From: Candidatus Omnitrophica bacterium UBA6215
GTDB taxonomy: Bacteria > Omnitrophota > Gorgyraeia > Pluralincolimonadales > Pluralincolimonadaceae
DNA length: 64,000 nt
Assembly (NCBI GenBank): GCA_002421665.1
Contig: DISH01000006.1
Span: 217,784 to 281,783 of the forward strand
Direction: 5' to 3'
This document shows positions 25,805 to 64,000 of the stretch, one piece after another; the stretch's first letter is position 1; each line of letters begins with the position of its first letter. Made by a program: the position numbers and the translations under genes. Under the pieces are notes generated by a model. It was not told the origin of the DNA and did not search any database. It saw nothing but the letters and a program-made list of their open reading frames with translations.

Positions 25805-27046
25805 TTACTTCTTGAGTATCTCCTTGAACTTCTGGGTCAGGGCCGGGACTACCTCGTAAAGGTCACCGACTATCCCATACGTAGCTACTGAGAATATGGG
25901 CGCCTGAGAGTCTTTGTTTATCGCAATTATTATCTCGGACGAGGACATGCCTGCCAAATGCTGTATCTGGCCGGATATACCGCAGGCTATATATATTTTC
26001 GGGCAAACGGTCTTTCCCGTCTGGCCGACCTGATGCGAATACGGTATCCACTCCGCGTCAACCGCGGACCTGGAAGCGCCTACCGCGCCTCCAAGCACCT
26101 TAGCCAGTTCCTCGATGACCTTGAACCCCTCGGCCTTGCCTAATCCCCTTCCGCCCGAGACTATGATGTCCGCCTCGGTAAGGTTCACTGTTGAGGAGAT
26201 CTCCTCAACTACGTCGGATATCCTGGTACGGGAAGCCAAAAGGTTGTCAGGATAGGACTTTTTCACGACCTGCCCTTTCCTGGACTTATCGACCTGCGCT
26301 TCCTTGAATACTTTATGGCGGACAGTCGCCATCTGGGGCCGGTAGTTCTCGCAAAGGATCGTAGCCATTATGTTACCGCCGAACGCCGGGCGCGTCTGCA
26401 GGAGGATCTTCTTCTCCTTGTCGATATCAAGCGCGGTACAATCTGCGGTCAGGCCGGTATAAAGTTTTACCGCTATGCGGGAAGCCAGCGATCTGCCGAT
26501 CGATGTCGCCCCGTAAAGAAGGATCTCCGGCTTGAACTCTTTGACAAGCTCTACTATTATATTTGTATAAGGCTCGTCTTGGTAACTCTTGAGCCCGGCA
26601 TTCTCAACCAAGTACACTTTATCCGCCCCGCGCCAGAAAAGCTCTTCCGCCTGGGCTTCTACAGCATCTCCTATAAGGACAGCGGCGAGTTCCGTACCCA
26701 GGGCGTCGGCAAGCTCCCTGCCCTTCCCGAGCAGCTCATATACCACGCTCTGGACTTTGCCTTTCTTCTGCTCCGCGAATACCCATACTCCCTTGTAATC
26801 ACCGAGGGCGACCTTCGGGGCGACTTTGCATACGGTCATCTCTATGGCCTTGAACTTACATGATTCCACGCAGGCCCCGCAAAGCGTGCACTTCATATAA
26901 TCTATCACCGCAAGCTTGCCCTTCTTCGCCTCGGCCGAGTCGACCATCGATATAGCGCCGAACGGACAGGTCTTTACGCACATGGTGCAGCCGGTGCAAT
27001 TACCGGTTATTATTTGTATTGAACAATCCTTTGGTTTATCTGTCAT
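25805..27046 (-). CDS. etfA: Electron transfer flavoprotein alpha subunit fused to an N-terminal 2x[4Fe-4S] ferredoxin domain
   Basis: N-terminal CTGCTMCVKTCP and CTLCGACVESC cluster motifs, followed by the EtfA FAD-binding domain (VSGGRGLG...YIACGISGQIQHLAG). Confidence 0.9.
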   Translation of the reverse strand: MTDKPKDCSIQIITGNCTGCTMCVKTCPFGAISMVDSAEAKKGKLAVIDYMKCTLCGACVESCKFKAIEMTVCKVAPKVALGDYKGVWVFAEQKKGKVQSVVYELLGKGRELADALGTELAAVLIGDAVEAQAEELFWRGADKVYLVENAGLKSYQDEPYTNIIVELVKEFKPEILLYGATSIGRSLASRIAVKLYTGLTADCTALDIDKEKKILLQTRPAFGGNIMATILCENYRPQMATVRHKVFKEAQVDKSRKGQVVKKSYPDNLLASRTRISDVVEEISSTVNLTEADIIVSGGRGLGKAEGFKVIEELAKVLGGAVGASRSAVDAEWIPYSHQVGQTGKTVCPKIYIACGISGQIQHLAGMSSSEIIIAINKDSQAPIFSVATYGIVGDLYEVVPALTQKFKEILKK

Positions 27047-27047
27047 T

Positions 27048-27854
27048 TTATGTCTTGCTCACCGATATGACTACGTCTTTTATGGAATCCGCTAATTTAT
27101 TCACGATATCCGGAACCTCTCCCTGTAATACCTGTCCTCCGGTTCTCTTTGGGGGCGTAAAGATCTTTTTCACGGCTGTCGGGGAACCCTGAAGGCCGAG
27201 CCTGTCCGGGTCAACCTCTAGATCTTTCGCGCCCAGGACCGTCGCCTTCGACTGCTTGGCCTTTATCTTTCCTTTAAGTGACGGCAAGCGCGGTATGTTT
27301 ATCTCTTTTACAACGGTTATCAGGCAAGGCAACGGGGTCTCTATGACTTCATAACCTTCCTCGGTCATCCTCTCGAACTTAGCCAAACCCTCTTTTATGT
27401 CTTCGGTCTTCTTTACATACGTGACCTGCGGTATATCCAATGTGGCCGCGATTCCGGGTCCAACCTGTGCGGTGTCCCCGTCTATGGCCTGCTTGCCGCA
27501 GATTATCAGGTCGAACTTCCCGAGTTTCTGTATACCCTTTGCAAGTGTATAACTCGTGGCCCAGGTATCCGAACCCGCAAAAGCGCGATCACTCATAAGG
27601 ACCATCTCGTCGGCGCCCATGGATACGGCTTCGCGCAGCGCCTCTTCAGCCTGGGACGGGCCCATGCTCAAAACCGTCACTTTCGTTGACGCGGCACCCA
27701 GCCTCTCTTTTATCCTCAGGGCTTCCTCGATGGCGTACATATCGAACGGATTGACTATCGACTGCACCCCCTCGCGCATCAGGGTGTTCGTTTCGGGATT
27801 TATCCTTATGTCCTGGGTATCCGGAACCTGTTTGATACAGACTATTATGTTCAT
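27048..27854 (-). CDS. etfB: Electron transfer flavoprotein beta subunit
   Basis: 268-aa ORF. EtfB signature [12 protein letters not shown]...[19 protein letters not shown]. Adjacent to etfA with a 1-nt gap. Confidence 0.9.
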
Positions 27855-29005
27855 CCTCTTAACTGCTCTTTCAGTAATTCCAACGCTATGACATTGCGCT
27901 GGATCTGGTTAGTACCCTCGTATATCTGGGTTATCTTCGCATCACGCATGTATTTTTCCACGGGATAATCACGCATGTAACCGTAACCGCCCAGGACCTG
28001 TATGGCATCGGTCGTCACTTTCATCGCCACGTCGGAGGCAAAGAGCTTGGCCATAGCGGATTCCTTGGAAACATCTTTCGCGCCGGTATCGACCATCTTG
28101 GCCACTGAATACGTAAGAGCACGGGCAGCCTCAACTTCTGTGGCCATATCGGCCAGCATGAACTGCAACCCCTGGAACGACGATATAGTCTTGCCGAATT
28201 GTTTACGTTCGCGGGAATATTTGACTGCGTGGTCTAAAGCACCCTGCGCAATACCAACGGCCTGCGCGGCTACACCCGGACGGGACTTATCAAAGGTCTT
28301 CATCGCAACTATAAAACCCATACCTTCGCGTCCCAGTAAATTCGCCTTGGGTATCTTGCATTCGTTAAATACAAGCTCGCGGGTAGCGGAGGCGCGTATA
28401 CCAAGCTTCTTCTCTTTCTTGCCGAAATCAAAACCCGGGGTGCCTTTCTCAATGATAAAAGCGCTGGCGCCGCGCGCGCCCTTTTCCCTGTCGGTCATCG
28501 CTATGACCGTGTAGACTTCCGCTTCACCGCCGTTGGTTATCCATTGCTTGACGCCGTTAAGCACATAATGATCGCCCTCTTTCCTGGCTGTTGTAGCTAT
28601 TGCGCCCGCATCCGAACCTGCGCCGGCTTCGGTCAAAGCAAAAGCGGCAAGTTTCTTGCCGCTTGCTATATCCGGGAGATATTTCTGCTTCTGTTCATCG
28701 TTACCGAACAATATTATGGGGTACGTCCCGAGAGCCGTGGCAGCAAAACATATGGCAATACCGCCGCACGCGCGCGAAAGTTCTTCGGTCACGAGGCAAA
28801 GCTCCATAGCACCACCGCCTAAGCCTCCGTACTTTTCCTCGATGTAGACACCGCAAAGGTCGGATTCTGCCATAACCTTCATGATCTCCCAAGGAAAAGT
28901 CTCTTTTTCGTCATGCTCGGCCGCGACGGGCGTAATCTTTTCTTTCGCAATCTTGCGCGCCAGATCGCGCACCATAATCTGCTGCTCTGTAAGTAAATAA
29001 TCCAT
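27851..29005 (-). CDS. Acyl-CoA dehydrogenase (butyryl-CoA dehydrogenase-like, short-chain)
   Basis: 384-aa ORF with ACAD motifs ([23 protein letters not shown]). 4-nt overlap with etfB, giving a bcd-etfBA arrangement. Confidence 0.9.
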
Positions 29006-39984: not shown

Positions 39985-40851
39985 TCAGGCGGGCTCTATA
40001 TGGACCATGACATCCGTAACGCCCTGGAATTTTTCGCGTATGCGTTTCTCGATCACGGTAGCAAGGTCATGGGACTTGCCTACTGTCATGTTCCTGTCAA
40101 CGGTTATATGCAGGTCTACATGTATGTCATCCGCCCTTCCGCGCGTACGTATCCTGTGGCAACCGACCACATCCTTCAGGTCGGAAAGAGCTTCGTTAAT
40201 GTCCTGGCTGTTGATGACGGCATAATCGGTAAGGACCCTGGAGGTGTCCCTTAGTATCCCGACCCCGACATAGCCGATAAGTAAAGCTATTATCATCCCG
40301 GCTATGACATCTATGATGGGCAGGCCGAGCCTGACGCTTATCAAGCTGACCACTACCATTACGGAAGCGAGTATGTCCGATCCGGTATGGAGGGAATCCG
40401 CTATCAGGAAGTCGCTGTTTAGCTCCCTGCCCTTCTTCATCTCGTACCTGACAACCCAGACATTGACCAAAAGGGTTATACCCATTACGACAAAACTCAG
40501 GACCGTAGCTTCCGGAACTATAAGCTCTTGGTGAATAAGCTTGTGTACGGAATTACTCAACAGCCTGAATGCCACAAGGAAGAGCGCAACCGCTATAGCC
40601 ATGGAAGCCAGGGTCTCGTACTTCCTGTGTCCGTAAGGATGGCCTACGTCACGGGGGCGTGCCGCCACTCCTATACCGATAAGCCCTATGATATTCGATG
40701 ACCCGTCGGAAAGCGAGTGCACGCCGTCCGCGAACATCGAGACCGAGTTCGTAATGTGGCCGTAGACCATCTTCGCGACAGCCACGCCCCAGTTAAGGAG
40801 CAATATCGCTATGAGAAGACGGCGTATCTGCGAAAACTTGTTTTCGCTCAT
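39985..40851 (-). CDS. Cation diffusion facilitator family metal efflux transporter
   Basis: 288 aa. Six TM helices with conserved HSLSD/HTGSD metal-site motifs and a C-terminal cytoplasmic domain. Confidence 0.85.
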   Translation of the reverse strand: MSENKFSQIRRLLIAILLLNWGVAVAKMVYGHITNSVSMFADGVHSLSDGSSNIIGLIGIGVAARPRDVGHPYGHRKYETLASMAIAVALFLVAFRLLSNSVHKLIHQELIVPEATVLSFVVMGITLLVNVWVVRYEMKKGRELNSDFLIADSLHTGSDILASVMVVVSLISVRLGLPIIDVIAGMIIALLIGYVGVGILRDTSRVLTDYAVINSQDINEALSDLKDVVGCHRIRTRGRADDIHVDLHITVDRNMTVGKSHDLATVIEKRIREKFQGVTDVMVHIEPA

Positions 40852-51858: not shown

Positions 51859-54800
51859 TCAAAACTCCTTGAAATACAAGATATCCGTCTTCGGAAGATA
51901 TGTAACGGTAATGTCCTCCAAGACGGGGGTCTCAAGCGCCGGGGTCCCGGTCGTCGAGATCGCCGACTGCTGCAGGACAAAACCGTCCCAGTAATTATCC
52001 GTAGGTATCCACTTACCCCAAACACCTATCCCGGCGCGCACTTTCGTCGCGGATGTCGGGGCCGCAACCCAGCCCATATCCATAAATATATAATCACTAC
52101 CAACGTTAGTGCCCGATGAGACCGGCGTCGAACCTGAGTAAACAATGTTGCCTGCACTATCATAAAATTTCAGTTCAAGATCTCCGTGCCAACTGCCGCA
52201 GTCTGCGGACCATGAATACCATCCGCTGAATCTGTATTTGGCGCCTTTAACGCACGGCACCTCCTGATATATTTCGGTATCCAATTTACTGCTGTTGCTG
52301 CCGGAGCGCCTGCCGTGTCGCAGGCTATATGCTCCTTCATGCGGCTTGAGAGTGCTTGCAGTAGCGCCATTTGCCAATGCAACCGTCCAGTTGCTCAAAC
52401 TCCCGCTTTCGAAGCCGCCGTTCACTAAGACATTATCAACCTCTTGGACAGTTTCAGTCCCCGTAGCAATTAATTCCGCTTTAACCGCCAATTTGTCACT
52501 AACCGTATTTATAGCCCGCCCCGCGGAGGGATCGGTCCACTCCCCTGTCCATGAGGTCTTTGCACCTGTCGTATCCACGGATACCGTAATTCCGCCGCCT
52601 TCATCGGCTATTTCGTCCGGCACGGCTTGCGTCCATGTTATGGTCCCAAGCAGGACATTTTTCCCGAAGTCGATCTCCGGGGACTCATAACTACCGTTCA
52701 TGACATAAATACCGTTGTTCATATCCGCGACGATCTCGTAATCAGACCGTTGGGTATCCCACATCCAGACCGAACCTATCACCGAGTTGGAAAACTCGTA
52801 GCTGCCTTCACTTACATTCCACTTGCTGTATTCGTTTCCGCACATGAAATCATAATCTATATCGGATTTATCCTCGTAATCGGGATGATAATAATAAACG
52901 TTTATATCGTTAGATCCGTCCGAACCGCAATTATAAAAGAGCTTCAGTTCCCCGTTCAAATATACGTACATAGGGCATACGGAGGAATTGTACGTCCCCT
53001 CCGGGTTTCCTTCTATCGGAGAAGGATTAGTCCACGTAACCGCCAGATGATTCCACTTACCCGCATCCCAATGGCCCCAACTCCTGCTGCCATAAGGCCA
53101 TCCAAAGCCGGTATCCCCCCATTTGAACAACCCTTCGGAAAACCCCCATTTTGAAGTCGACGGGCTCCATCGCCCTCCTCCCCACTTAGCCTCAGCGTAA
53201 GTCCCCCCTCCGTCGGACCACATGAATAACGCCATAAATGGCATTCCGGCGGGATCGTCATAGCCGTCTATGGCGCTTCCGCTCGTAAGTCTTAGCATCT
53301 TCCTGTCCACATCGCTGTCCCCATACATCATGGAATCGATACTGTTCCATTGGGTCTTGAACCATATCTCAAGCGTCCCCTTACTGGCGGAAACATTCCC
53401 GGGGCATTTATATGCGGCGTTTACCTTATCGAACATGTCGGAAAGCATTCCGTCGGGCATAAGGTCCCCGCGGGTCAGGTAATCCGCAATACTTCCAATA
53501 TTTGGCTTTGTCCCGCTCCCGCTCGCCTTGACATCGGAAAGGGATTTATTGCCGCCCGCACTCTGGGCATCCAACGACTTCCTGTAATTAGCGTTGAACC
53601 AGGAGGTGCAGCTCGTCCCATCCGGGCCGCCAACGGTCTTCTTGGCGAGCATTATCTGTCCGTCGTATGCCGCCGCGGACGGACGCAGGTCCGTATCTTC
53701 CACCTCGACCGGCTCGGGATAAGTCGTGATATCCGTCTTGGAAGAGCCCGTCGCCTCAAACTGCTGCTGGCTCGTTAACCTGTACTGGTCAAATATCTTG
53801 GCAATACATATCACGTTCTTCTTCGCAACGGTTATCGGAGGTCTGCTTACCGTGCCCACAGAGGTTATCTCGTAGTAACCGCCGGAATTAAAACTGAACT
53901 CCGTAGTGTTGACACTAAAACCTCTGTCGTCCGAGTCCGCCGCACCGTTCTTGTTCCAATCCATGAGATATTTCCCGATATACCCCATCTTTGACGCCCA
54001 GCCGTAATTACGTATCCATGAAAACCCGGTATTCGGATTCGCGTTAGCCATAACCAAATCGGCGTCCCTGGAGCCTATCGAACTGCATCCTGCTATTGAC
54101 TCATAAAACTGCGGCCATCCTGAATAAGGCCTATGGTCTATTATATACTGGGCCAAAACATTCGCTTCATCAGCCGTTATCTCAAGAGTACCGGTCCCGG
54201 AACATGCATCGCATGCAACGGGCCCGATCAATGATGTCCCGGCCAGTGAACCGTCTCCCCCGCATTTCGGGCAGGCGTGTATCGCTTTTATCCCCCTGAG
54301 GACGGCCCTAAGGACTTCTTTTGAAGCGGTATTCACGTTGATCGGAGCCCTCGGCTGCAACGCATAAGGCGTAACCAAATCTGTAGGGTTTACCACGGAA
54401 GTATCGATAAAACCGTAGATGGTAAGGTAATCGGCGACCCCGGCGTACTTTTCCTCGATCTCGGCTTTTGTGGAACCGCTTATATATAACTTTATCTCTT
54501 CTTTCGCGGAATAAGGCGCATGCGAAGCTATGTTATCGCAATCGGCATCGGTAAGCAGCGCGGGACTTGAGGTAGCGCTCAAGTTCTTTAATATCTGGGC
54601 AAGGTTTGGATTGCCGTCATTAAGGTTTATCCGGCTGGCGCAATCTACCGCGGTAACGCTATATGAACCGGCAAGGCCCCTGTCGAAGGTAAACGTTCCG
54701 TCATACGATACTTCGGACGTATCAACGGCATCCGCAGTCGCCCCGTTGTCCCCCGTCCTCAATTCGGCTATCGCTTTCGCTATACCGGCATCCGCCATCA

Positions 54801-54942
54801 TCGACGCCTTTTTCGCGTAATAATAATTAAACGCCGATTTGAGACCTAATATAGAATTTATGGTAAAACTTACGCCAATAAAGGACATAAAGGTCAACGC
54901 GCCCAAGGCTATAAGTATAGCGACGCCTTTTCTTTTCCGCAT
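51859..54942 (-). CDS. Giant (1027 aa) PilX/GspK-like minor-pseudopilin protein with DnaJ-type zinc knuckle, LamG/ConA-like and CBM4/9-like modules (paralogue 1)
   Basis: N-terminus MRKRKGVAILIALGALTFMSF...AKAIAEL resembles PilX_N/GspK. GspK-like NLN (SYSVTAVDCASRINLND) and NVNTAS (INVNTASKEVLRAVL) motifs are present. Zinc knuckle CPKCGGDG...CDACSGTG. LamG-like GKWNHLAVTW...YVYLNGEL. CBM4/9-like VNGGFESGSLSNWT...YRFSGW. The C-terminus PVLEDITVTYLPKTDILYFKEF is shared with the paralogues. Confidence 0.75.
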   Translation of the reverse strand: MRKRKGVAILIALGALTFMSFIGVSFTINSILGLKSAFNYYYAKKASMMADAGIAKAIAELRTGDNGATADAVDTSEVSYDGTFTFDRGLAGSYSVTAVDCASRINLNDGNPNLAQILKNLSATSSPALLTDADCDNIASHAPYSAKEEIKLYISGSTKAEIEEKYAGVADYLTIYGFIDTSVVNPTDLVTPYALQPRAPINVNTASKEVLRAVLRGIKAIHACPKCGGDGSLAGTSLIGPVACDACSGTGTLEITADEANVLAQYIIDHRPYSGWPQFYESIAGCSSIGSRDADLVMANANPNTGFSWIRNYGWASKMGYIGKYLMDWNKNGAADSDDRGFSVNTTEFSFNSGGYYEITSVGTVSRPPITVAKKNVICIAKIFDQYRLTSQQQFEATGSSKTDITTYPEPVEVEDTDLRPSAAAYDGQIMLAKKTVGGPDGTSCTSWFNANYRKSLDAQSAGGNKSLSDVKASGSGTKPNIGSIADYLTRGDLMPDGMLSDMFDKVNAAYKCPGNVSASKGTLEIWFKTQWNSIDSMMYGDSDVDRKMLRLTSGSAIDGYDDPAGMPFMALFMWSDGGGTYAEAKWGGGRWSPSTSKWGFSEGLFKWGDTGFGWPYGSRSWGHWDAGKWNHLAVTWTNPSPIEGNPEGTYNSSVCPMYVYLNGELKLFYNCGSDGSNDINVYYYHPDYEDKSDIDYDFMCGNEYSKWNVSEGSYEFSNSVIGSVWMWDTQRSDYEIVADMNNGIYVMNGSYESPEIDFGKNVLLGTITWTQAVPDEIADEGGGITVSVDTTGAKTSWTGEWTDPSAGRAINTVSDKLAVKAELIATGTETVQEVDNVLVNGGFESGSLSNWTVALANGATASTLKPHEGAYSLRHGRRSGSNSSKLDTEIYQEVPCVKGAKYRFSGWYSWSADCGSWHGDLELKFYDSAGNIVYSGSTPVSSGTNVGSDYIFMDMGWVAAPTSATKVRAGIGVWGKWIPTDNYWDGFVLQQSAISTTGTPALETPVLEDITVTYLPKTDILYFKEF

Positions 54943-56010
54943 CTAATAACCTGTCCCTGTTGTTATCGAAGCTTCTTTTCTGATATAACTCGTCAATTCC
55001 TCAAATCCGTCCTCGTCGAGAAGCTTTTTCATTACCTCAGGATTTATCCTCGTATTCGGGTCGTTCTTCACCTTATTATAGACGGATGGATTTTTAAACT
55101 CAAGGTCGCAGTATTGCTGTAATTTTAAAAGTGAGTTAGCGGCAACTGTCACTGCATCTTCCGCACCCGGATGGAGAACATTTCTGGCATCGCTCTTCTT
55201 CTGCAACCCCCTTAAATAAAGCGCCCATGAGTTTGCCCATTTATTCCACTCTTTCGCGTTGAATTTCCTCTTCGAAGACTCATACATCCTGCATAGTTCC
55301 GAACGCGACGCCTCAAGCTTGGAGATCGAGGAACAAACCCTGCCCTTAAACTCCGCCTCCGTGCAGAGTATCTCCTTCATCCCGCCAGCATAAAGCAGGC
55401 AGCGCGACTCTGCCGTTCTTGCCTTGGTGCCTGAGGCAAAATTGGTCAACAACAGTTTTTTGATATCCTCTGTTTGTCTCTCCGGGGTAAAGATCGCCGT
55501 GACCGTATACACGGAAGGAAGCAGCCTTCTTTTTGAAAATTTGAAATCCATGAAGAACTTGTTTCCGAATACGCTTGTCCTGCCCGAAGCCATGACCACT
55601 CCGCGTCTTGCTATTAGAAGTTCTATAGAGGCGCCGTCGGGAAAAACGGCATCACCTTCAACGTCAACGATCACGGTATCTCCCTGACGGTCATAAAAAG
55701 CCCTTACCGACAGATCATAGGGCATGGCCTTGTCTTTATCTTCCTGGGGGTTAACCGGGGAGGGGGCCGATTCGGTCTTGGAGAAAAAATCTTCCGGCAG
55801 GGGCTTCTTTTCTATGGATCCTACATCACTCAAGCTGAATTTTACCTTACCTGCCTTCATCCTGAAGATCAGGCAGTTGCTATCCTCTTCCGTGATCTCG
55901 CCTTCAAACACTTTGCCGTTCTTAAGCCTGATCTCGTCCGCGAACGAACCCTGCAGGACAAAAAAAAGACTGGCGCAGATAACAATTATCCGGCCGGCCT
56001 TTGATAGCAT
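54943..56010 (-). CDS. Secreted hypothetical protein, paralogue family member 1 (355 aa)
   Basis: Sec signal peptide (cleavage near SFA/DE). N-terminal IRLKNGKVFEGEITEE beta-hairpin motif, a beta-sandwich-like middle and a W-rich helical C-terminus EWNKWANSWALYLRGL. Paralogous to the 343-aa and 403-aa genes. No gap from the upstream pilin-like gene. Confidence 0.7.
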   Translation of the reverse strand: MLSKAGRIIVICASLFFVLQGSFADEIRLKNGKVFEGEITEEDSNCLIFRMKAGKVKFSLSDVGSIEKKPLPEDFFSKTESAPSPVNPQEDKDKAMPYDLSVRAFYDRQGDTVIVDVEGDAVFPDGASIELLIARRGVVMASGRTSVFGNKFFMDFKFSKRRLLPSVYTVTAIFTPERQTEDIKKLLLTNFASGTKARTAESRCLLYAGGMKEILCTEAEFKGRVCSSISKLEASRSELCRMYESSKRKFNAKEWNKWANSWALYLRGLQKKSDARNVLHPGAEDAVTVAANSLLKLQQYCDLEFKNPSVYNKVKNDPNTRINPEVMKKLLDEDGFEELTSYIRKEASITTGTGY

Positions 56011-56013
56011 GTA

Positions 56014-59000
56014 TCAAAACTCTCTGGTGTAGAGCACCTGTGTCTTCGGCAGGTACGTAAAAGTCACGTCCTCGATAACAGGCGTATCAGTAAGAGGGAC
56101 AAGCGTCGTCGCTCCCTGCTCGATGAGCTTAAGGTCGTCAAAACTGGCGGGAATATACGCCCCGGAAGCCCAGCTGCATAGAGATATAGTGCAAAGGGTC
56201 GCGTCAGCGGGAGCCGTTACCCAGCTGCCGTTGGTAGGTATGCGCGTGTAAAGCCACGCGTCGCGAGTCCCCATGATAGATACTTCACCGCTGTTATAAC
56301 CGCCCGTCCCGTTGAACCACATCGTATAATAACAATTAATTGTTCCATACCCGCTCGGAAGGTAGGAATATCCTTCGAACTTGTATGCCTTTCCTCCGGT
56401 TATCGGCACGTCTATAGATACCCTGGCACTGCCGAAATTACCTGCGGACCAGGTCCCGCCGTGGACCGGACGGGCTTTAGTGCTAAGGAAAGTCCCCCAA
56501 CTCGGCGAGGCGCCCCAGCCTGAAGGAAGCGGGGCTTCGCTGCCGCCCAAGCCGGGATCATGCGTTTCAAAAGTCGGATCGGTGCAATCTTGCATGACAT
56601 CCGCGTCGGGCTGCGCAGCCGTACCCTTGGTCGAATTGAATACGCTTCTGAAGCGTATGGAACTGCTCCTTACGCGGTTATTGGAATTATTGACTATCGC
56701 CTCTCCTGATGATGAGCCGGTAGACTCCCAATCCCCGTAATAGGTCCCGGATATCGCCGGGTCAACAGCCATAGTTATCGTCTCTTCCGTACTCGGAGTT
56801 ATGGCGGTCCAGCTTGCCGTAGCCCACGTAACCGGGGTCCCGGTATCCGGAGAAGGCAGCGTTAATGTCGGAGATACATACGTCCCGGTCTTCCGGAACA
56901 GGCCGTTGCCGTATTCGGTCAGTATCTGGGCATTCGAAAGCTGCTGGTCCCATATCCTTACCGACGCCACAACCCCGTTCAACTGGCTGCGCTGGAAATG
57001 TGAAACCGTGCCGCTGCCCGCCCACCACTCGTTCCCAAGCATGAGGTATTGGGCGGAAGTGCTATCAAGATATTCCAAGTGGTGGAAATTCTGGTCCGTA
57101 CTCCTCTGTTTCCCGTCAAAATAGACTTTAAGGTCCTTCGGATAAATGCCCGGCCATGTAGACGTACTGTTAGCCGGATTACATTTGCCGTCATTAGCCG
57201 GTTCTTTCCAGCTGATCACATACTGGTGCCATTTACCGGAATTCCACGTACCCAAGGCCTCGGACCCTACATAGTTCCTGCAAAATTCTATGGCGTATTC
57301 GTTGCTTCCTTCTCCCTTGGAAGGATAATATTGCCAACTGGTACCGTTCCAGTACCCGTATCCCTGGGCGCCTATGGAACAGCCTTTCTGTGTCCCGCTG
57401 AAATTCTGCGAATAAAAAACATACGTGGAGAACGGCCATGTCTTGGTTCCGCTGCCGGTTATCTCGTCTTTGCTCATCAGTCGGTATATCTTGCGGTCCT
57501 TACAATCATCGTTATAAAGCATCGTATCGTTGCTGTTCCACATCGACTTGAACCATATCTCCATAGTACCGGCGCTGTAAGTGATATTATTGTTAGCCAG
57601 GTAGTCCGGGCAGACCACGTCATATGTATCGATAAGCATGCCGTCGGGCATCAATTCACCCCTTGAGCCCGCGGAAGCCACGCTGCCGATATTGGGCTTG
57701 GTCGCCAAAGTTCCGGAACCCGGGTTCGGCGGGTTTTGCAAAGCCGAGCTCCCCCCCGCGGCATTGGCATTCAACGAGGTGGTATAAGTAGCCCTGAAAA
57801 ATTTTCCGGAATTAGGCGTAGTACGGCTGACCCTGTCCATCATTATTTGCCCGTCATACGCCGCAGCTGTCACGCCTACCCCGGCAGGTTCCGGGTAAGT
57901 AGTCGTATTGGTTTTTACGTTCCCCGCCGAATCGAACTGCTGCTGATTGGCGGCTTTAACTATACCGAAAAGCCTGGCTGTCTCAGATATACCTCGCTGG
58001 GCGAGCAACACACCCGCAACCGTCCTGTAAGTACCGGTGGACCTTATCTCGTAATAGCCGCCCGAGTTAAAACTGAATTCCGTCGTGCTCTTCCTGAGCC
58101 CTTTATCGGTCGCCTCAACGGTCCCGTTCTTGTCGATATCTATCATATACTTACCCACATAACCCAGTCGCAATGCCCACGCATCATTACGGGCCCACGA
58201 AAAACCCGTATTGGGGTTAGCGTTAGCCATCACCACTTCCTGGTCGGACGAATATGTCCCGTTATTAAAGAACGCCTTTATCGAAGAATAGAAAGACTCC
58301 CAGCTTATATAGGGCCTGTGCGCCACTATGTAATTGGCCAGGTCCTGGGCTTCGGTCGAGTTTATTATCAGGTTACCCGTAATATTTGAAGGAGAGCCCC
58401 CTCCGTCGCAATACGGACAATCCAGGTGGGTACCTAACACGTCAAAATAATAACCGTCCCCTCCGCATTTCGGGCATGAATGGTCGGCCTCTATATTCAT
58501 CAGCAGGGCTCGAAGGACCTCAGCCGAAGCCGTATTGACGTTCACCGGGGAACGCGGCTGCAGCGCGTATGGAGTAGTTATATCCTGCGGATCGATCGTC
58601 GTAGGATCGACATAGCCGTATATTGTTATATAATCGGCTATCTTCGCGTACTTCGCTTCCGATATTCCCGCTTTTACCTTGATCTCTTCTTTCGTGGTAT
58701 AAGGCCTGTTGGCGGCTATGTTGTCGCACTCGGCGGTTGTCAGGCCCGCTGAGACAACGGTATTGAGGTTTTGCAATATCTGGGAAAGGCGCGCGTTGCT
58801 GTTGCTGTCGCTGAGGTTTATGCGGCTGGCACAGTCGATAACCGTAACGCTGTAACTGCCGCGGTTGCCAAGAAGGGAATTATCGGAAAACCCGCTTGAA
58901 AAAGCCGTTTCCGCAAGACTGTCTATGGCGTCATTAAAGGCGCCCTGATTGCCGTACCTGAGTTCGGCTATGGCCTTAGCTACACCGGCTTCCGCAAGCA

Positions 59001-59139
59001 TCCTGGCTTTGACATTAGCATTAAAATTATGCGCCGCTTTCTGCTCCATTATAACCGAAAGCACCATGGTCGAGCCTATAAGCGAGAGCATGGCCAGAAC
59101 ACCAAGAGCGAAGACTATAGCGAGTCCTTTTCTCATCAT
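56014..59139 (-). CDS. Giant (1041 aa) PilX/GspK-like minor-pseudopilin protein with zinc knuckle, LamG-like and CBM-like modules (paralogue 2)
   Basis: The N-terminal ~430 aa are co-linear with paralogue 1 (AKAIAELRYG, SYSVTVIDCASRINLSD, VNVNTASAEVLRALL, CPKCGGDG...CPYCDGGG, ANANPNTGFSW, TEFSFNSGGYYEI). LamG-like GKWHQYVISW...LKVYFDGKQ. C-terminus PVIEDVTFTYLPKTQVLYTREF. Confidence 0.75.
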   Translation of the reverse strand: MMRKGLAIVFALGVLAMLSLIGSTMVLSVIMEQKAAHNFNANVKARMLAEAGVAKAIAELRYGNQGAFNDAIDSLAETAFSSGFSDNSLLGNRGSYSVTVIDCASRINLSDSNSNARLSQILQNLNTVVSAGLTTAECDNIAANRPYTTKEEIKVKAGISEAKYAKIADYITIYGYVDPTTIDPQDITTPYALQPRSPVNVNTASAEVLRALLMNIEADHSCPKCGGDGYYFDVLGTHLDCPYCDGGGSPSNITGNLIINSTEAQDLANYIVAHRPYISWESFYSSIKAFFNNGTYSSDQEVVMANANPNTGFSWARNDAWALRLGYVGKYMIDIDKNGTVEATDKGLRKSTTEFSFNSGGYYEIRSTGTYRTVAGVLLAQRGISETARLFGIVKAANQQQFDSAGNVKTNTTTYPEPAGVGVTAAAYDGQIMMDRVSRTTPNSGKFFRATYTTSLNANAAGGSSALQNPPNPGSGTLATKPNIGSVASAGSRGELMPDGMLIDTYDVVCPDYLANNNITYSAGTMEIWFKSMWNSNDTMLYNDDCKDRKIYRLMSKDEITGSGTKTWPFSTYVFYSQNFSGTQKGCSIGAQGYGYWNGTSWQYYPSKGEGSNEYAIEFCRNYVGSEALGTWNSGKWHQYVISWKEPANDGKCNPANSTSTWPGIYPKDLKVYFDGKQRSTDQNFHHLEYLDSTSAQYLMLGNEWWAGSGTVSHFQRSQLNGVVASVRIWDQQLSNAQILTEYGNGLFRKTGTYVSPTLTLPSPDTGTPVTWATASWTAITPSTEETITMAVDPAISGTYYGDWESTGSSSGEAIVNNSNNRVRSSSIRFRSVFNSTKGTAAQPDADVMQDCTDPTFETHDPGLGGSEAPLPSGWGASPSWGTFLSTKARPVHGGTWSAGNFGSARVSIDVPITGGKAYKFEGYSYLPSGYGTINCYYTMWFNGTGGYNSGEVSIMGTRDAWLYTRIPTNGSWVTAPADATLCTISLCSWASGAYIPASFDDLKLIEQGATTLVPLTDTPVIEDVTFTYLPKTQVLYTREF

Positions 59140-60350
59140 CAGTTTATCTCCCTGGGGGCGGATGACAGCTCGGAATTCATGATGCCCACCAGTTTCTGCA
59201 ACTCCATCTCCAAAGCGTAACGTTTCTTCTCCATATCGGCTTTCTTTGCGGCACCTGCCTCGGAAGACCGGGTCTTAAGGCTATCGGTCATTATAACATA
59301 TATATCGGAAAGATACTTTACCGCAATAGGCAGGCCCTTCTCGCACTCCGGATACAGGGCCGCCGCGTCTTTCCTTCCGTTCTTTAGGCTGTTACTCAAC
59401 TTTTTAAGGCGGAAACGCCACCTATCGGACCATTCATCCCACGTCACGGCGTTAAAATCGTTAAGGGACAAAGCATAGACATCTTTGAGTTCTTTATATA
59501 ATTCTTCTACGGAAGACACCTCGAGCGCAGTGTCGCTCTTCTCGTTCTTTTCGTTCTTCGCGGCTTCGGAAGCCCTTCCTATAACTACGTCGGCACTCGA
59601 AGCCGTGTAAGGTATCTTACCGTTTAAAGCTGCCTTCTTGAACTCCGGCCTCTGCATGTCAGGGATGAACACTGCTTCCACTTTATATTTGCCCGCGGCC
59701 AATTCCGTCCCGAAAGGTCCGAACGATATACTGAAGGAGTTACCCATAACGACCGACTCCCCCATGGTGATCACATTATCTATGCGTTTCAAGAATATCT
59801 TCAGGACGGCCCAATCAGGCAGCCCCGTCTTGCCGTCTACATGCAGTATTATCTTGTTCCCGTATTGTTCGATGGAATTCGATATCTCTATCCCGTAAGG
59901 GGATATCTCTGCCTCTTCTTCCCCGGCATCAAGAGGAATAGAGGCCTCCACGCCTTTTAATTGTCCGCCGGGACCTCCTGTTTTCATAGAACTGATCACG
60001 CTATCAACCTGTTTCTCTGGAAAGAACAGTACCTGCACTTCATATTTCCCGGACAGCGGTTTATCTAAAGGCCCGAGCGTAACATAATATTTGCCGGGAG
60101 AGACTTTTATGTCTTTAAAAGCGACCGGACTGCCGTTCTTCTTAACAAAAACCGATACTACGGCATCCCTCGGAAGAGTAGTCTCCCCTGAAACACTTAC
60201 TTTCGGGCCTTCCTTGGTCCTCAGGTAAAGCGCCTTATCAATGGTTATCTCGAATACAGTGTCACCGTCCGCCGCGGGGGCCAAAAAACAAAAAAAGCCG
60301 GCAACAAGTATAATTATATTAACGGCTTTTGGAAGTAACTCTCTTTTCAC
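59139..60350 (-). CDS. Secreted hypothetical protein, paralogue family member 2 (403 aa, two beta-sandwich-like repeats)
   Basis: GTG start with SD GGGAGGG at N7. Signal peptide (APAA/DG). Two repeats of a ...GKYxVxxxFxPxxQ module. W-rich C-terminal motif TWDEWSDRWRFRLKKL. 1-nt overlap with the downstream giant gene. Confidence 0.7.
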   Translation of the reverse strand: MKRELLPKAVNIIILVAGFFCFLAPAADGDTVFEITIDKALYLRTKEGPKVSVSGETTLPRDAVVSVFVKKNGSPVAFKDIKVSPGKYYVTLGPLDKPLSGKYEVQVLFFPEKQVDSVISSMKTGGPGGQLKGVEASIPLDAGEEEAEISPYGIEISNSIEQYGNKIILHVDGKTGLPDWAVLKIFLKRIDNVITMGESVVMGNSFSISFGPFGTELAAGKYKVEAVFIPDMQRPEFKKAALNGKIPYTASSADVVIGRASEAAKNEKNEKSDTALEVSSVEELYKELKDVYALSLNDFNAVTWDEWSDRWRFRLKKLSNSLKNGRKDAAALYPECEKGLPIAVKYLSDIYVIMTDSLKTRSSEAGAAKKADMEKKRYALEMELQKLVGIMNSELSSAPREIN

Positions 60351-60406: not shown

Positions 60407-61438
60407 TTATTGCCTGTTCTTCAAGTCGGCGGCTACAGCGGAAACATCCTGCTTTGTCTCTTCCAGCGCCTGTTCAAACGACCTCTTAAGAAGCGCGACG
60501 TCCTGCACAGGGAACCCCGTTTTCGCAGGTTTTGAATCCAGGGAGTTCAGCTTGATCGTATATGCCCTTAAAAGCAACGGCAGCTGGTTAAAACAGAACC
60601 GGATCCTCCTCTGGGACAGGGCATGGGTAGACACAACATAGGCCTTGGCTTCTTCTTCAAATTTCTGCCTGGCGGCACTGACCTTAGAGAACCACCTCCC
60701 CGACCAGTCTTCCCATTTCTGCGCGCTATACGAGGACCTGCTCTTCTCATATTCCGCATTAAGCTCTTTGTAAAGGGCTTCCGCCCCTGAAGCCGTCCGG
60801 TTGAGGTATTCCCTGGTCTTAGTCTCGTCGGTTTCCGCGCGTTCCCGGCTGCCTATCATCAATTCGTAAGGCTTCGAATATAACCTGTTATTGGTGCCGG
60901 TCATCGCCTCCGCCTGAACGGTATACACTCCTGATATCATGCGATTTTCGAACGGACCGAATACCACGTAGAACTCCCCTCTCTTTACGCGGGATTCTTT
61001 CATGTTTATTACCCCTCCCGCCTGCATGAAATATACCCTCAAAGGTGTGTTGTTGGCAAGTTCGCTCGTTCCGCTGACGTATATCTTGCCTCTCTTGTAT
61101 TCCGCCTTCACTTTTATGCTCGCGGAAAATACCTGCGGGGCTTCTTCCGTTTTCGGTTCCGGCTCGGGTTCGGTATTTATCTCGGGGAGCGCCGCGGTCG
61201 AATATCCCTCGGCCGGCTCCCTGGCTTCGAAAGAGCTTACATCCTTCCTGGCTATCCTCATCTTGCCTGAGCCCAATTTGATCTCGATATAATCTATTGT
61301 CTTATCGGTTATCTTCCCCTCTATAGTCCTCCCGTTCCGCAGGAAGATTATATCGGCACGTGACGAAGCCGCCATAAATAACCATATTAGCGAGATCGAT
61401 ATTATCTTAGCCGGCCTTATCATTGTCCTTCTCTCCAA
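60407..61438 (-). CDS. Secreted hypothetical protein, paralogue family member 3 (343 aa)
   Basis: Signal peptide (SSRA/D). IIFLRNGRTIEGKITDK N-terminal motif as in the 355-aa paralogue, and a W-rich KWEDWSGRWFSKV motif. The start may be the internal MIRPAK (top about 61423), which overlaps the upstream stop in ATGA fashion. Confidence 0.7.
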   Translation of the reverse strand: MERRTMIRPAKIISISLIWLFMAASSRADIIFLRNGRTIEGKITDKTIDYIEIKLGSGKMRIARKDVSSFEAREPAEGYSTAALPEINTEPEPEPKTEEAPQVFSASIKVKAEYKRGKIYVSGTSELANNTPLRVYFMQAGGVINMKESRVKRGEFYVVFGPFENRMISGVYTVQAEAMTGTNNRLYSKPYELMIGSRERAETDETKTREYLNRTASGAEALYKELNAEYEKSRSSYSAQKWEDWSGRWFSKVSAARQKFEEEAKAYVVSTHALSQRRIRFCFNQLPLLLRAYTIKLNSLDSKPAKTGFPVQDVALLKRSFEQALEETKQDVSAVAADLKNRQ

Positions 61439-64000
61439 TACTCAACCTCAACCTTAGGCAGGAAAGTTACGGTTATATCCTCAAGAACGGGAGTCCTGGA
61501 ACTCGCTGAATACTGGTCCCTGCTTATACTCGACGATGAAAGTACCGCCTTATACTGAATAAAGGGATCCGTCCCTGAAAGCTGCGCCCCATTGGTAAGC
61601 GATGACCCCCACGATGTATCCCCGGTAGGCAGACCTGAAGCGGTAGACGCTATCCTGGCATACATAGTGACGTTTGTGCTGGACATGGGTTGGGTCTGGG
61701 GGGACCACGAAACGGTTCCCCATATTACCGATGAGCCCGCGCAGAACGGCGTCGACACTAAATAACCGTTCTCGGGTATTCCCCGGATATCATCCCAATG
61801 CGTCTGCAGGACTGTTACCGCGCCGGCCTTATCAAAATCCGCCGGCCCTATGGTACACTGTCCCCTGTTGAAATCCGACCAGTCCCAACCGAGGTATTGG
61901 TTATTGGCTATATATTTGAAGATCTGGGTATTAGCCCCAAGCGTGCCCGGCGACCAGGTAGACAGGGCTCCTGAAGTACCGTTTACGAAGGACCTGTACG
62001 ATACGCTCGTCCCGGAATTCGCGCCGGCCATCCCGATGGTCTTCTCCGGCAGGTAATTGAACTGAGTATAGAACATCTTTGTATACATCCTTATCTCGTT
62101 GGTATCGCCGAAACAATAAAGAGGTTTGGGCTCAGTGGTAACGTTGGTATTGCCATGGCTGTCGTTGAGCAGGCATTTGTAGCCTCTTGCCGTCATCGTT
62201 TGCCCGCCGTATCCGGTAGGCCATGTATCATCCTGCACGCCCTTGGCGAATATCCAGCATCCGCAGAACGGCGCTTCAGGCTGCCAGTAAGTATAGCTTC
62301 CAGGAGAAGGTATCGTCTCAAGTTCCCAACTTGCCGGCCGCGTCGGGTTGTATATGTAAGTCGGGTTTCCGCTCGCGTCATAAACCGGATACACCTCCGG
62401 CTCCCCGTAACGGCCCTCAAGGCTCCCGTCAAAGACACCGTTACCGTTCTGGTCATAATAATAGACATACCTGCTGCTGCCTGAATACAGGCGCGTCGTG
62501 GGAGGCGGGAAAGACAGCGGATATACCGTTCCGTTGCCGCGCCATGCTATCCTGGTAGAAGGCGCGGGTTCTTTTACGTATGCCCTTACAAAAACGGAAT
62601 TCGTGTTAGGTCTGAAATAGTTCCTGTTGACCTCGAAATGTTTGCTTTCAAAAGTGTTGACCTCTATATATACCTCCCTGTCGCCGTCAGTATCATTATC
62701 CTGGAAATCCTGGTAACTAACGTTAAATTCGCTAGTCCCCCACCACGACCTGTTCGCGACATAACCTTTCATCATGACGGCCGAGAACGCCGGATCCTCG
62801 TCAAAATTATCCCAATACCCGAGCTTAAGAGAATCCGGAGTTGTCGCGTAACCCGGGACCTCCCATTGCATCTTGCCCGCCCCGGAATTCCAACTGTCTT
62901 CTACAGTAGGACACTCGTCAAGCCAATTAACATTGAAGACCTCCCCGTCCTGGAAGTTGCCGTATCTGCCGAACCAGGCGGCATAAAACTCTTCTTTGGT
63001 GGTCTGCGTCCACGTACCGAATACCTTGACGACCGCGGAAAGCTGTTTTACGGAAGCCGTCTGCGTGCCATTAAGCTCCCTGGCGGTAACGCCTATCGTA
63101 TAGATCCCCGCGTGGTTATATCCGCTCGTAAGTTCTGTCCTCGGGTCATACCCGAGCCTCTCAGCAGGTATAGGCGCGGCCGAAGCGAAGGAGGCCGATT
63201 TCCACTTCAACTGCACCGAATTATGGAACAATTGGTCATAGTATTCCAGGCGTATCCTGTGCCAACCGGGATTCGCGAATGTATAAGTCCCCGACGCGGT
63301 CCTGTCCCACGGATAATTTTCCGAACTTTGCTTATCCGTCCAACGGGAACAGACTAAAGTATCATTTATATAGAACCTTGCACCGTCATCGCAGGCTATC
63401 CAGAAGGTTATCGGAGTATTGACCTCGGAATCCGTTATCTCTATATAACCGGTCCAGATGACCCCGAATGTGGTAAGCCCGTAATCGCCTACCGTGGCGA
63501 TGGTCCCTCCTCCGGCAAATTCAGCGTCATGCGTCTCCGCCCAAGTATCGCCTCCGTCACCGTCGGTCCCGGGCATTACCGCGTCATCAGGAGTCTGGTA
63601 TATCTGTCCGATCTCCACTATCTTTTCGCAAAAACTTGACTTGTCAATAGCTACGTTAGGAGTTGAACCTGTCAGGTTGCTGTAATACTTGCCCAGGAGG
63701 CCGCCCCTGATTATAGGCTTATTCACCGTCAATTTGTTCTTATTAGCTTCGAAAACCGCCTGGGTAATACCGGTTGCCATCCTGATCTCGGAAATGGCGT
63801 CAAAAGGCGCGTTCTTGCATTGCGCGGACCCCTCGATATTACCGGAAACGCCTCCTACTGCGGTATTGACCGCGTCGGAGTCCCTGTAGTCTATTATGTT
63901 GGCGATCTGCTGGTTAGAAAGGAAGGTTTGGAGTATAGTTATCTGGCTTGAGTCGGTTTCATCAAAGGTATTTATATTTACCTTATCCTCCTCTGAGGAT
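61420..64000 (-). CDS. Giant PilX/GspK-like minor-pseudopilin protein with PA14 domain (paralogue 3; 5'-partial, N-terminus beyond window end)
   Basis: The reading frame stays open from the track's M at 63780 to the window edge. In that upstream part it encodes a GspK-like ANIIDYRDSD motif. It contains a PA14-like segment (GTYTFANPGWHRIRLEYYDQLFHNSVQLKWKS) and ends with PVLEDITVTFLPKVEVEYWREGQ, like paralogues 1 and 2. Confidence 0.7.
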   Translation of the reverse strand, partial: SSEEDKVNINTFDETDSSQITILQTFLSNQQIANIIDYRDSDAVNTAVGGVSGNIEGSAQCKNAPFDAISEIRMATGITQAVFEANKNKLTVNKPIIRGGLLGKYYSNLTGSTPNVAIDKSSFCEKIVEIGQIYQTPDDAVMPGTDGDGGDTWAETHDAEFAGGGTIATVGDYGLTTFGVIWTGYIEITDSEVNTPITFWIACDDGARFYINDTLVCSRWTDKQSSENYPWDRTASGTYTFANPGWHRIRLEYYDQLFHNSVQLKWKSASFASAAPIPAERLGYDPRTELTSGYNHAGIYTIGVTARELNGTQTASVKQLSAVVKVFGTWTQTTKEEFYAAWFGRYGNFQDGEVFNVNWLDECPTVEDSWNSGAGKMQWEVPGYATTPDSLKLGYWDNFDEDPAFSAVMMKGYVANRSWWGTSEFNVSYQDFQDNDTDGDREVYIEVNTFESKHFEVNRNYFRPNTNSVFVRAYVKEPAPSTRIAWRGNGTVYPLSFPPPTTRLYSGSSRYVYYYDQNGNGVFDGSLEGRYGEPEVYPVYDASGNPTYIYNPTRPASWELETIPSPGSYTYWQPEAPFCGCWIFAKGVQDDTWPTGYGGQTMTARGYKCLLNDSHGNTNVTTEPKPLYCFGDTNEIRMYTKMFYTQFNYLPEKTIGMAGANSGTSVSYRSFVNGTSGALSTWSPGTLGANTQIFKYIANNQYLGWDWSDFNRGQCTIGPADFDKAGAVTVLQTHWDDIRGIPENGYLVSTPFCAGSSVIWGTVSWSPQTQPMSSTNVTMYARIASTASGLPTGDTSWGSSLTNGAQLSGTDPFIQYKAVLSSSSISRDQYSASSRTPVLEDITVTFLPKVEVEYWREGQ

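Follow-up and report, generated by a model that had tools for sequence, protein, structure and literature searches.

A conserved four-cysteine insert resembling half a DnaJ cysteine-rich domain in GspK-like modular pseudopilins of Omnitrophota

The window analyzed here is a stretch of 64,000 nucleotides (nt) from contig DISH01000006.1 of Candidatus Omnitrophica bacterium UBA6215. It encodes two long paralogous proteins, of 1027 and 1041 amino acids (aa), whose N-terminal part resembles the minor pseudopilin GspK and contains four cysteines arranged in two CxxCxGxG knuckles. Type IV pili and the pseudopili of type II secretion systems (T2SS) are thought to be capped by a subunit of the GspK/PilX type, which is well placed to set what the filament touches, and it would be unusual for an extracellular protein of this kind, an exported cap subunit, to be stabilized or given an added function by a conserved Cys4 knuckle. 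The two paralogues are collinear and 39% identical over their full length. An initial annotation, made from the sequence alone, had noticed two knuckles in each protein, and they are indeed seen in both open reading frames (ORFs) at homologous positions; in a six-frame scan of the whole 64-kb window, CxxCxGxG is restricted to these two ORFs and occurs twice in each. The two genes and the features around the knuckles are as follows.

51859 to 54942, minus strand: paralogue 1, a GspK-like modular pseudopilin of 1027 aa (ORF, Pfam, NCBIfam, AlphaFold2 (AF2) model and Foldseek)
56014 to 59139, minus strand: paralogue 2, a GspK-like modular pseudopilin of 1041 aa (ORF, Pfam, NCBIfam)
54250 to 54273, minus strand: knuckle 1 of paralogue 1, CPKCGGDG (C224, C227), from the sequence
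54190 to 54213, minus strand: knuckle 2 of paralogue 1, CDACSGTG (C244, C247), from the sequence
58453 to 58476, minus strand: knuckle 1 of paralogue 2, CPKCGGDG (C222, C225), from the sequence
58396 to 58419, minus strand: knuckle 2 of paralogue 2, CPYCDGGG (C241, C244), from the sequence
54175 to 54294, minus strand: four-cysteine insert of paralogue 1, residues 217-256, comprising a stem strand, knuckle 1, a variable beta-hairpin, knuckle 2 and a stem strand (alignments, DSSP of models, profile matches)
54295 to 54345, minus strand: helix 1 of the second helix-hairpin-helix (HhH) repeat of paralogue 1 (PINVNTASKEVLRAVLR), a motif common to XcpX (family profile; the Pfam T2SSK and NCBIfam GspK matches stop here, at residue 217/218)
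54091 to 54174, minus strand: helix 2 of the second HhH repeat of paralogue 1 with the RPY motif, residues 257-284 (AF2 helices 257-270 and 276-284; family consensus)

The insert reads ...PINVNTASKEVLRAVLRGIKAIHA-CPKCGGDG-SLAGTSLIGPVA-CDACSGTG-TLEITADEANVLAQYIIDHRPY... in paralogue 1 and ...CPKCGGDG-YYFDVLGTHLD-CPYCDGGG... in paralogue 2. From the first Cys of one unit to the first Cys of the next the distance is 20 residues in paralogue 1 and 19 in paralogue 2, with spacers of 12 and 11 residues between the knuckles, which replaces the earlier figure of about 17 residues; the ranges first assigned to the knuckles, 54200-54275 and 58405-58478, were correct to within about 10 nt, and their exact bounds are those listed above. 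The knuckles had also been placed right after the NVNTAS helix-hairpin. They do adjoin that motif, but the insert, 30-50 residues long, takes the place of the hairpin itself in the second HhH motif, between helix 1 (NVNTASxEVLxAVL) and helix 2 (ITxxEAxxLAxYIxxxRPY).

How widely this arrangement occurs was assessed by an exhaustive HMMER search, which gave 1183 family members (E ≤ 1e-3, representatives clustered at 50% identity), the best 150 of which were inspected; an earlier word-index search with residues 1-411 had given five matches, four of them without the insert and one frameshifted. Among the best 150 of the 1183, the insert stands at the second HhH hairpin in 14 intact clusters (P0006-P0015, P0018, P0019, P0024 and P0026) and in the frameshifted P0001, and all the other members (about 130) show a plain hairpin, G(I/L)SDGTNTIS, at the same site. 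The 14 cluster representatives, the two window proteins and seven proteins from loci L001-L004 make up a set of 23 insert-bearing sequences. Conservation of the cysteines in orthologues had been set beforehand as the check that could overturn the idea of a knuckle: all four are invariant in 23 of 23 sequences, across which identity drops to about 32-35%. In an alignment of 16 insert-bearing and 50 other rows (A3), the four Cys are present in 16/16 of the former, and the same columns are gapped in 47/50 and 50/50 of the latter. In an alignment of 17 inserts, the invariant positions are C-P-x-C-x-G-D-G of knuckle 1, one Gly and the two Cys of knuckle 2; the spacer is poorly conserved in sequence and 7 to about 18 residues long, and several members have up to about 20 extra residues inside or after knuckle 2.

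Each of the metagenome-assembled genomes (MAGs) at loci L002-L004 holds both paralogues with all four Cys, and therefore the duplication is older than the divergence of these genomes. At L001, a metagenome contig, the same motif is found across a frameshift. The protein concerned (L001 10001-11291: P0001, JGI 3300048658), the closest metagenomic homologue, is frameshifted inside knuckle 1, after CPNCGG, and the frame resumes with DGYIRAAYGGNPSCTECNGSG; either the sequence contains an error or the gene is a pseudogene. That the cysteines form a functionless chance pattern is contradicted by their conservation: the motif is short, and nothing else speaks for chance, whereas all four Cys are kept in every one of the 23 sequences over such distances and the insert has been retained in two ancient paralogues across four genomes. 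Chance can hardly be entertained as an explanation. The named insert-bearing members are almost all from Candidatus Omnitrophota, with one from Candidatus Auribacterota, whose automatic NCBI name is "zinc finger-like domain-containing protein." Only one sub-clade of this large family has the insert, which is a lineage-specific addition rather than a new system; it constitutes a testable structural variant and has no bearing on a major open question. At L002 and L004 and in clusters of P0007, near-identical proteins are labeled as coming not only from Omnitrophota but also from MAGs of "uncultured Planctomycetia," Syntrophorhabdaceae and Dehalococcoidales, probably owing to binning or labeling inconsistencies in public MAGs.

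The protein into which the insert is built has further features upstream and downstream of it, here listed for paralogue 1.

54754 to 54942, minus strand: prepilin-like leader (MRKRKG, then VAIL...) and long hydrophobic alpha1 helix, residues 1-63, with no Glu at +5, as in GspK (sequence; AF2 helix 2-63; weak PilX_N and T2SS_GspK matches)
54427 to 54633, minus strand: first HhH repeat of the alpha-domain, residues about 104-172 (family profile against the ComEA HhH domain, E 3.4e-7, and XcpX; HHH_3 match in paralogue 2)
52201 to 52434, minus strand: module of the carbohydrate-binding type, CBM_4_9/NTTRR-F1-like, residues 837-914 (Pfam CBM_4_9 E 3.8e-5; NCBIfam NTTRR-F1 E 4.8e-7)

The two N-termini, MRKRKG followed by VAILIALGALTFMSFIGVSF (which starts VAILIALG) and MMRKG followed by LAIVFALGVLAMLSLIG, have a leader ending in Gly and then a hydrophobic helix of about 20 residues without Glu at +5, and this prepilin-type pattern without Glu5 is also seen across the family. 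By sequence, the N-terminal part gives weak Pfam matches to T2SSK, PilX_N and HHH_3 (for PF03934, 17.1 and 20.9 bits, under the 24.2-bit cut-off) and matches NCBIfam T2SS_GspK (NF037980) over residues 5-218 with E-values of 3e-8 and 6e-9 (33.6 and 35.8 bits against a cut-off of 130), the match ending exactly at the start of the insert. The family profile finds XcpX with E 2.7e-4 in an alignment that runs through the common "APLNVNTASVPVLAAMFE" (NVNTAS), and the same profile matches the HhH domain of ComEA at the first repeat. By structure, an AlphaFold2 model of residues 1-421 of paralogue 1, built from a 66-sequence alignment, has a mean predicted local distance difference test (pLDDT) of 89.1 and a predicted template modeling score (pTM) of 0.86, with pLDDT 91-92 for the knuckle blocks and 77 for the spacer, and contains short strands at 219-221, 232-233, 242-243 and 253-254. 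The significant PDB matches of this model in Foldseek are XcpX/GspK chains only: 9a1f_T (1.9e-6), 6utu_C, 5vtm_X and 3ci0_K (6.2e-4), all with probability 1.00. The N-terminal 400 aa or so are a GspK/XcpX-type minor pseudopilin at the fold and superfamily level, a distant relative and no equivalog; it is at this level that the label "GspK-like," given to the host domain from the outset, is valid, because of the Foldseek, profile and prepilin-leader evidence. The proteins share with GspK/XcpX and PilX/PilK the prepilin-type helix without Glu5, a pilin sheet into which an alpha-domain with two HhH repeats is inserted, and an identical NVNTAS. Their length, in contrast, is three to four times that of GspK/XcpX and includes C-terminal lectin/CBM-like modules (CBM, carbohydrate-binding module) of about 600 aa, and they score 34-36 bits against a cut-off of 130; moreover, neither the solved GspK/XcpX structures nor about 130 other family members have a Cys4 insert in the second HhH hairpin. 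In the C-terminal part all matches are sub-threshold (CBM_4_9, 24.5 versus 25.9 bits; Laminin_G_3, 18.2 versus 27.6; NTTRR-F1, 30 versus 70), and its assignment as lectin/CBM-like modules is borderline.

The genomic surroundings of three insert-bearing homologues are informative about the kind of machine to which the family belongs.

P0019 (locus L005): a GspG-like gene (GFTLIE), genes of 202 aa (GFTLIE), 156 aa (GFTLIE) and 240 aa (weak T2SSJ match), then the K-like gene
P0026 (locus L008, an Auribacterota MAG): two N_methyl pilins, the K-like gene and a 336-aa gene, with GspF nearby
P0012 (locus L007, an Omnitrophota MAG): the K-like gene, PilM/PilN, an Amuc_1100-type (PilO-like) protein, a 229-aa gene and a secretin

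Insert-bearing homologues are found in G-H-I-J-K operons, where they occupy, like GspK/XcpX, the K position after G-H-I-J, or beside PilMN and a secretin, in line with their early description as pilus or pseudopilus subunits, and one family member is named "Tfp pilus assembly protein PilX" in a database source. The gene orders correspond to G-H-I-J-K at L005 and to I-J-K plus GspF at L008. The extracytoplasmic, pilus-associated reading of the family is well supported. By analogy, the two window copies would be pilus-associated and extracytoplasmic as well.

A resemblance of the knuckles to DnaJ had been proposed from the motif alone. When a profile made from 17 inserts was searched against all PDB sequences, the top match was the cysteine-rich domain of Escherichia coli DnaJ (1EXK, E 5.2e-5), aligned to repeats 2 and 3, that is, zinc centre II, followed by anti-TRAP (3lcz, E 3.6e-3) and then by ribosomal zinc ribbons. 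Searched singly, all 17 inserts matched PF00684 (DnaJ_CXXCXGXG) at E ≤ 1, the best at 9e-6 and none at the cut-off, and 15 of the 17 matched the Pfam model of anti-TRAP, none at the gathering threshold. The DnaJ signature is thus borne out by the profile match, with the reservations that the insert has just two of the four repeats of DnaJ and scores below the cut-offs. The most fitting description of the insert would be a DnaJ-like zinc ribbon with one centre, equivalent to one half of the cysteine-rich domain of DnaJ: DnaJ-like rather than a DnaJ domain because no sequence reaches the Pfam/NCBIfam cut-offs, and with a single metal centre, as in anti-TRAP, BSD2 and CYO1, because two of the four repeats are present. 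What it has in common with centre II of DnaJ is a pair of consecutive CxxCxGxG knuckles around a beta-hairpin. DnaJ differs in having four repeats and two interleaved zinc centres against two repeats and one predicted centre, and the pseudopilins have neither a J domain nor the C-terminal domains of DnaJ, belong to an extracytoplasmic setting and in some members have a degenerate knuckle 2. In anti-TRAP (RtpA), BSD2 and CYO1/SCO2, as would be the case here, two CxxCxGxG units make one Cys4 site, and the Pfam/NCBIfam E-values for anti-TRAP are 1e-3 to 1e-4; there, however, the unit is a small domain, free-standing or C-terminal, that acts in regulation or as a chaperone, whereas in the pseudopilins it is inserted as a loop within a fold of the pilin family. 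With a motif this short, ancestry shared with DnaJ cannot be told from convergence. In an AF2 model of the insert only (pLDDT 81.7), strands lie at 4-8 and 39-43 (stem) and at 19-20 and 29-30 (hairpin). DSSP gives these positions without pairing partners; with the strands placed as stem and hairpin, the knuckles would face each other if the strands pair in that way.

We consider it somewhat probable, at roughly 60%, that the insert is a structural Zn(Cys)4 ribbon by which an exposed finger of a modular tip adhesin is made rigid. An outline of this model is as follows. The two paralogues are modular minor pseudopilins of the GspK/PilX type, made up of a prepilin-type helix, a pilin sheet with a two-HhH alpha-domain, and about 600 C-terminal residues resembling lectins or CBMs, and with this modular build they would therefore be tip-located adhesin subunits of a type IV pilus or a T2SS-like filament. 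In a sub-clade consisting mainly of Omnitrophota, with one Auribacterota, the second HhH hairpin has been swapped for a zinc-ribbon-like insert of 30-50 residues. Its two stem strands would pair, so that the CPxCGGDG and CxxCxGxG knuckles oppose each other and a beta-hairpin of variable length projects between them, a topology corresponding to that of anti-TRAP and of metal centre II in the cysteine-rich domain of DnaJ. The four thiolates would bind one Zn2+; because pseudopilins are inserted via the Sec/signal recognition particle pathway and fold outside the cytoplasm, the metal would be taken up in the periplasm after Sec-dependent insertion. Held together by the metal, the insert would form a stiff finger exposed on the surface of the cap domain at the filament tip, and its hypervariable hairpin is a possible contact surface. 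The invariant P and G-D-G of knuckle 1 fit a knuckle turn rather than a requirement for Cys alone.

The same four cysteines could do without a metal, either as two periplasmic disulfides stapling the insert or as a redox-active CxxC. The extracytoplasmic location would suit such a role. A redox-active CxxC would have a parallel at the thylakoid membrane in the CxxCxGxG proteins CYO1, with two such repeats, and LQY1, both reported to be protein disulfide isomerases (PMC4754418). The insert-free relatives have a Cys pair, NCNPN...TTEFCF (query positions about 301 and 350), in 29/50 and 39/50 rows of A3, against 3/16 and 5/16 of the insert-bearing rows, and this pair suggests that disulfides are used in this fold. 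The insert-bearing rows, in turn, often carry C101 (12/16) and C135 (9/16) in paralogue 1 numbering. This pattern may represent a swap of stabilizing cross-links, in which metal stapling could replace the disulfide in insert-bearing members, and it fits the disulfide explanation equally well. On the other hand, the invariant P and G-D-G at knuckle 1 are typical of metal knuckles and unneeded for disulfides, every one of the closest profile matches is a metal site, and the host may be an anaerobe, in the periplasm of which thiolates can persist. The last point comes from a group of genes at window 25805-29005 on the minus strand, encoding an electron transfer flavoprotein (ETF) alpha subunit with an N-terminal 2x[4Fe-4S] ferredoxin domain, ETF beta and an acyl-CoA dehydrogenase; such a combination is typical of electron-bifurcating ETF systems and suggests an anaerobic lifestyle. 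We regard disulfides or a redox-active CxxC as unlikely, if by no means negligible. A conserved Cys4 knuckle on the exported cap subunit hints that in anaerobic candidate phyla a metal may take the place of disulfides as a staple.

CPxCG is also the knuckle signature of rubredoxin. As the host is, in addition, apparently an anaerobe, a rubredoxin-like Fe(Cys)4 centre giving the tip a redox function, for example in extracellular electron transfer, could be imagined, the more so as conductive pilins have been predicted in Omnitrophota (PMC10066038). No rubredoxin family is found, however, among the 25 families listed by the Pfam search of the inserts, and a lone centre at the tip would have no evident electron path, with neither aromatic nor haem features. 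An iron centre of this kind is very improbable.

The combination of HhH repeats with a zinc ribbon also brings to mind a nucleic-acid-binding head, by which the tip would act as a DNA receptor for uptake like the DNA-binding minor pilins of competence pili. The match of the first HhH repeat to the DNA-binding domain of ComEA (E 3.4e-7) agrees with this, as does the frequent role of zinc ribbons in nucleic-acid binding; the matches of the insert include UvrA and ribosomal zinc ribbons. Against it, HhH repeats are general in GspK/XcpX, proteins not known to bind DNA; the insert destroys the hairpin, which is the phosphate-contacting element of a canonical HhH; and the lectin/CBM-like modules at the C-terminus point to adhesion to glycans. 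A DNA receptor is accordingly a poor prospect, and a structural zinc ribbon on an adhesin is the reading that we prefer.

Several observations weigh against that preference. Outside the cytoplasm, Zn(Cys)4 sites are uncommon; they are also prone to oxidation. The full-length proteins score only 15.2 and 13.3 bits with PF00684, and the insert of paralogue 1 alone 19.7, against a threshold of 32.7; likewise, the anti-TRAP models, in which two adjacent CxxCxGxG units are present, stay below their cut-offs (PF15777, 16.8 bits versus 32; NF058604, 18.5 versus 65). All seven Foldseek matches of the insert-only model are Cys4 zinc modules (UvrA twice, anti-TRAP, DnaJ, BSD2 and DnaJA2 twice), but none is significant, the best E-value being 1.7. 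The glycines of knuckle 2 are less strict than those of knuckle 1, with variants such as CxSCSSG, CPACPD and CTDCYA. In a neighbor-joining tree made without the insert columns, the 16 insert-bearing rows form one clade with a bootstrap of only 26/100. Finally, the genes beside the window paralogues include no pilin, pseudopilin or machinery gene, the neighbors being accessory secreted and housekeeping genes, so that the incorporation of the two window copies into a pilus relies on their homologues.

In relation to known systems, no paper describing a zinc site in GspK, PilX or other pilins and pseudopilins was found in the literature searched, which agrees with the initial annotation in its statement that the knuckle is not a known feature of these proteins. 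The papers searched gave no confirmation of zinc in the structure of the pilin PilJ of C. difficile, and PilJ is not used as evidence here. The GspE/PilB ATPases of type IV pilus and T2SS machinery carry Cys4 zinc sites. In the papers on pili that were searched, a zinc site turned up only in the prepilin peptidase PilD, as a cytoplasmic tetracysteine site (PMC4471445, PMC10191384). The sites of PilD and GspE/PilB resemble the insert as CxxC...CxxC tetracysteine zinc sites in the same type of nanomachine; they are, however, cytoplasmic and situated in enzymes, whereas the Cys4 insert sits in an exported filament subunit. A second parallel is offered by the modular, or "grafted," type IV pilins, for example PilB and PilC of Streptococcus sanguinis, in which a pilin module is fused to adhesion-type modules (PMC10191384, PMC6916266). 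The window proteins are built likewise, with the proviso that their C-terminal calls (CBM_4_9, Laminin_G_3) are sub-threshold or borderline; they differ from S. sanguinis PilB/PilC in that the pilin module is of the large GspK type and that an internal metal knuckle is undescribed for PilB/PilC. Omnitrophota are uncultured, ultra-small and probably host-dependent, and type IV pili have been proposed as their attachment devices (PMC10066038); these putative modular tip proteins are therefore candidate host-recognition factors.

The two paralogues belong to a cassette of six genes which, in transcription order, encode a PA14 protein, proteins of 343 and 403 aa, paralogue 2, a protein of 355 aa and paralogue 1, and which is followed by an EF-G-type elongation factor gene and housekeeping genes. 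Besides the paralogues, its members are as follows.

61420 to 63780, minus strand: PA14-domain protein of 786 aa, first gene of the cassette, with a C-terminal TPVLEDITVT(F/Y)LPK common to both paralogues
60407 to 61438, minus strand: accessory protein of 343 aa with a Sec signal peptide
59139 to 60350, minus strand: accessory protein of 403 aa with a Sec signal peptide, the stop codon overlapping the start of paralogue 2 by 1 nt
54943 to 56010, minus strand: protein of 355 aa with a Sec signal peptide, directly abutting the start of paralogue 1 (54942/54943)

The 343-, 403- and 355-aa proteins are mutually paralogous, interleaved with the GspK-like genes and tightly packed, and NCBIfam Lepto_7_Nterm is matched by two of the three (E 5e-9 and 1.5e-8). 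The gene 3′ of the Auribacterota homologue (L008 4350-5360) is weakly related to this family (blastp 5e-5). By sequence and gene order, the three-member family looks like a conserved accessory partner. A C-terminal motif of about 20 residues, TPVLEDITVTYLPKTxILYxxE, closes the GspK-like proteins, the PA14 protein and distant members of the family (P0002, P0005, P0079 and P0101), and it could be a signal for sorting, docking or strand complementation. The PA14 protein was considered as a third GspK-like paralogue and rejected, since it shares only this motif. A CDF zinc exporter encoded at 39985-40851 was likewise rejected as being linked to the insert; it is surrounded by housekeeping genes. 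A regular-expression scan of the window for canonical pilins of the G-FTLIE type found none.

Other cysteine arrangements occur in the family. P0101 has two canonical CxxCxGxG units after helix 2 of the second HhH subdomain (residues 236-268), P0028 a knuckle pair after the RPF helix (residues 247-290) and P0070 a knuckle pair before KPYKSY (residues 236-275), all three without a hairpin insert; the N-terminal 60 aa of P0101 are nearly identical to those of P0008, a member with the hairpin insert. A search with the knuckle region of P0101 gave no matches, so that the alternative site is known from single clusters. The pattern suggests that knuckle pairs have been acquired recurrently at different positions of the second HhH subdomain. 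A further explanation of the knuckle would see in it a functional centre. While these putatively parasitic nanobacteria attach to a host or prey cell, it could serve as a redox-active CxxC or as a metal site, attacking or sensing disulfides or metals on the surface of that cell; or it could be an Fe(Cys)4 centre for electron transfer. The repeated acquisition at three to four positions would then reflect selection for this activity. We think such a function improbable. In the C-terminal half of P0098, P0102 and P0109 (about residues 960-1100) there is a dense Cys-rich module, CxDCRNCxDC...HCFNRFP...CDDCxGCExCD, a putative extracellular metal or disulfide cluster of a different kind.

Elsewhere in the window lies a further pair of genes. 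At 9392-18757 on the minus strand, an ORF of 3121 aa matches Pfam Glucan_synthase (PF02364, 1,3-beta-glucan synthase component) with E 8e-27 over residues 2174-2644, which it combines with a GT2 region and, at the N-terminus, a GH76-like region; PF02364 is the FKS type best known from eukaryotes. Immediately upstream, with a 4-nt overlap, a protein of 1282 aa with an OEP/TolC-like domain is encoded at 18754-22602 on the same strand. The arrangement is unusual for a bacterium, and, judging from these domains, the two genes may form a pair for synthesis and export of an exopolysaccharide.

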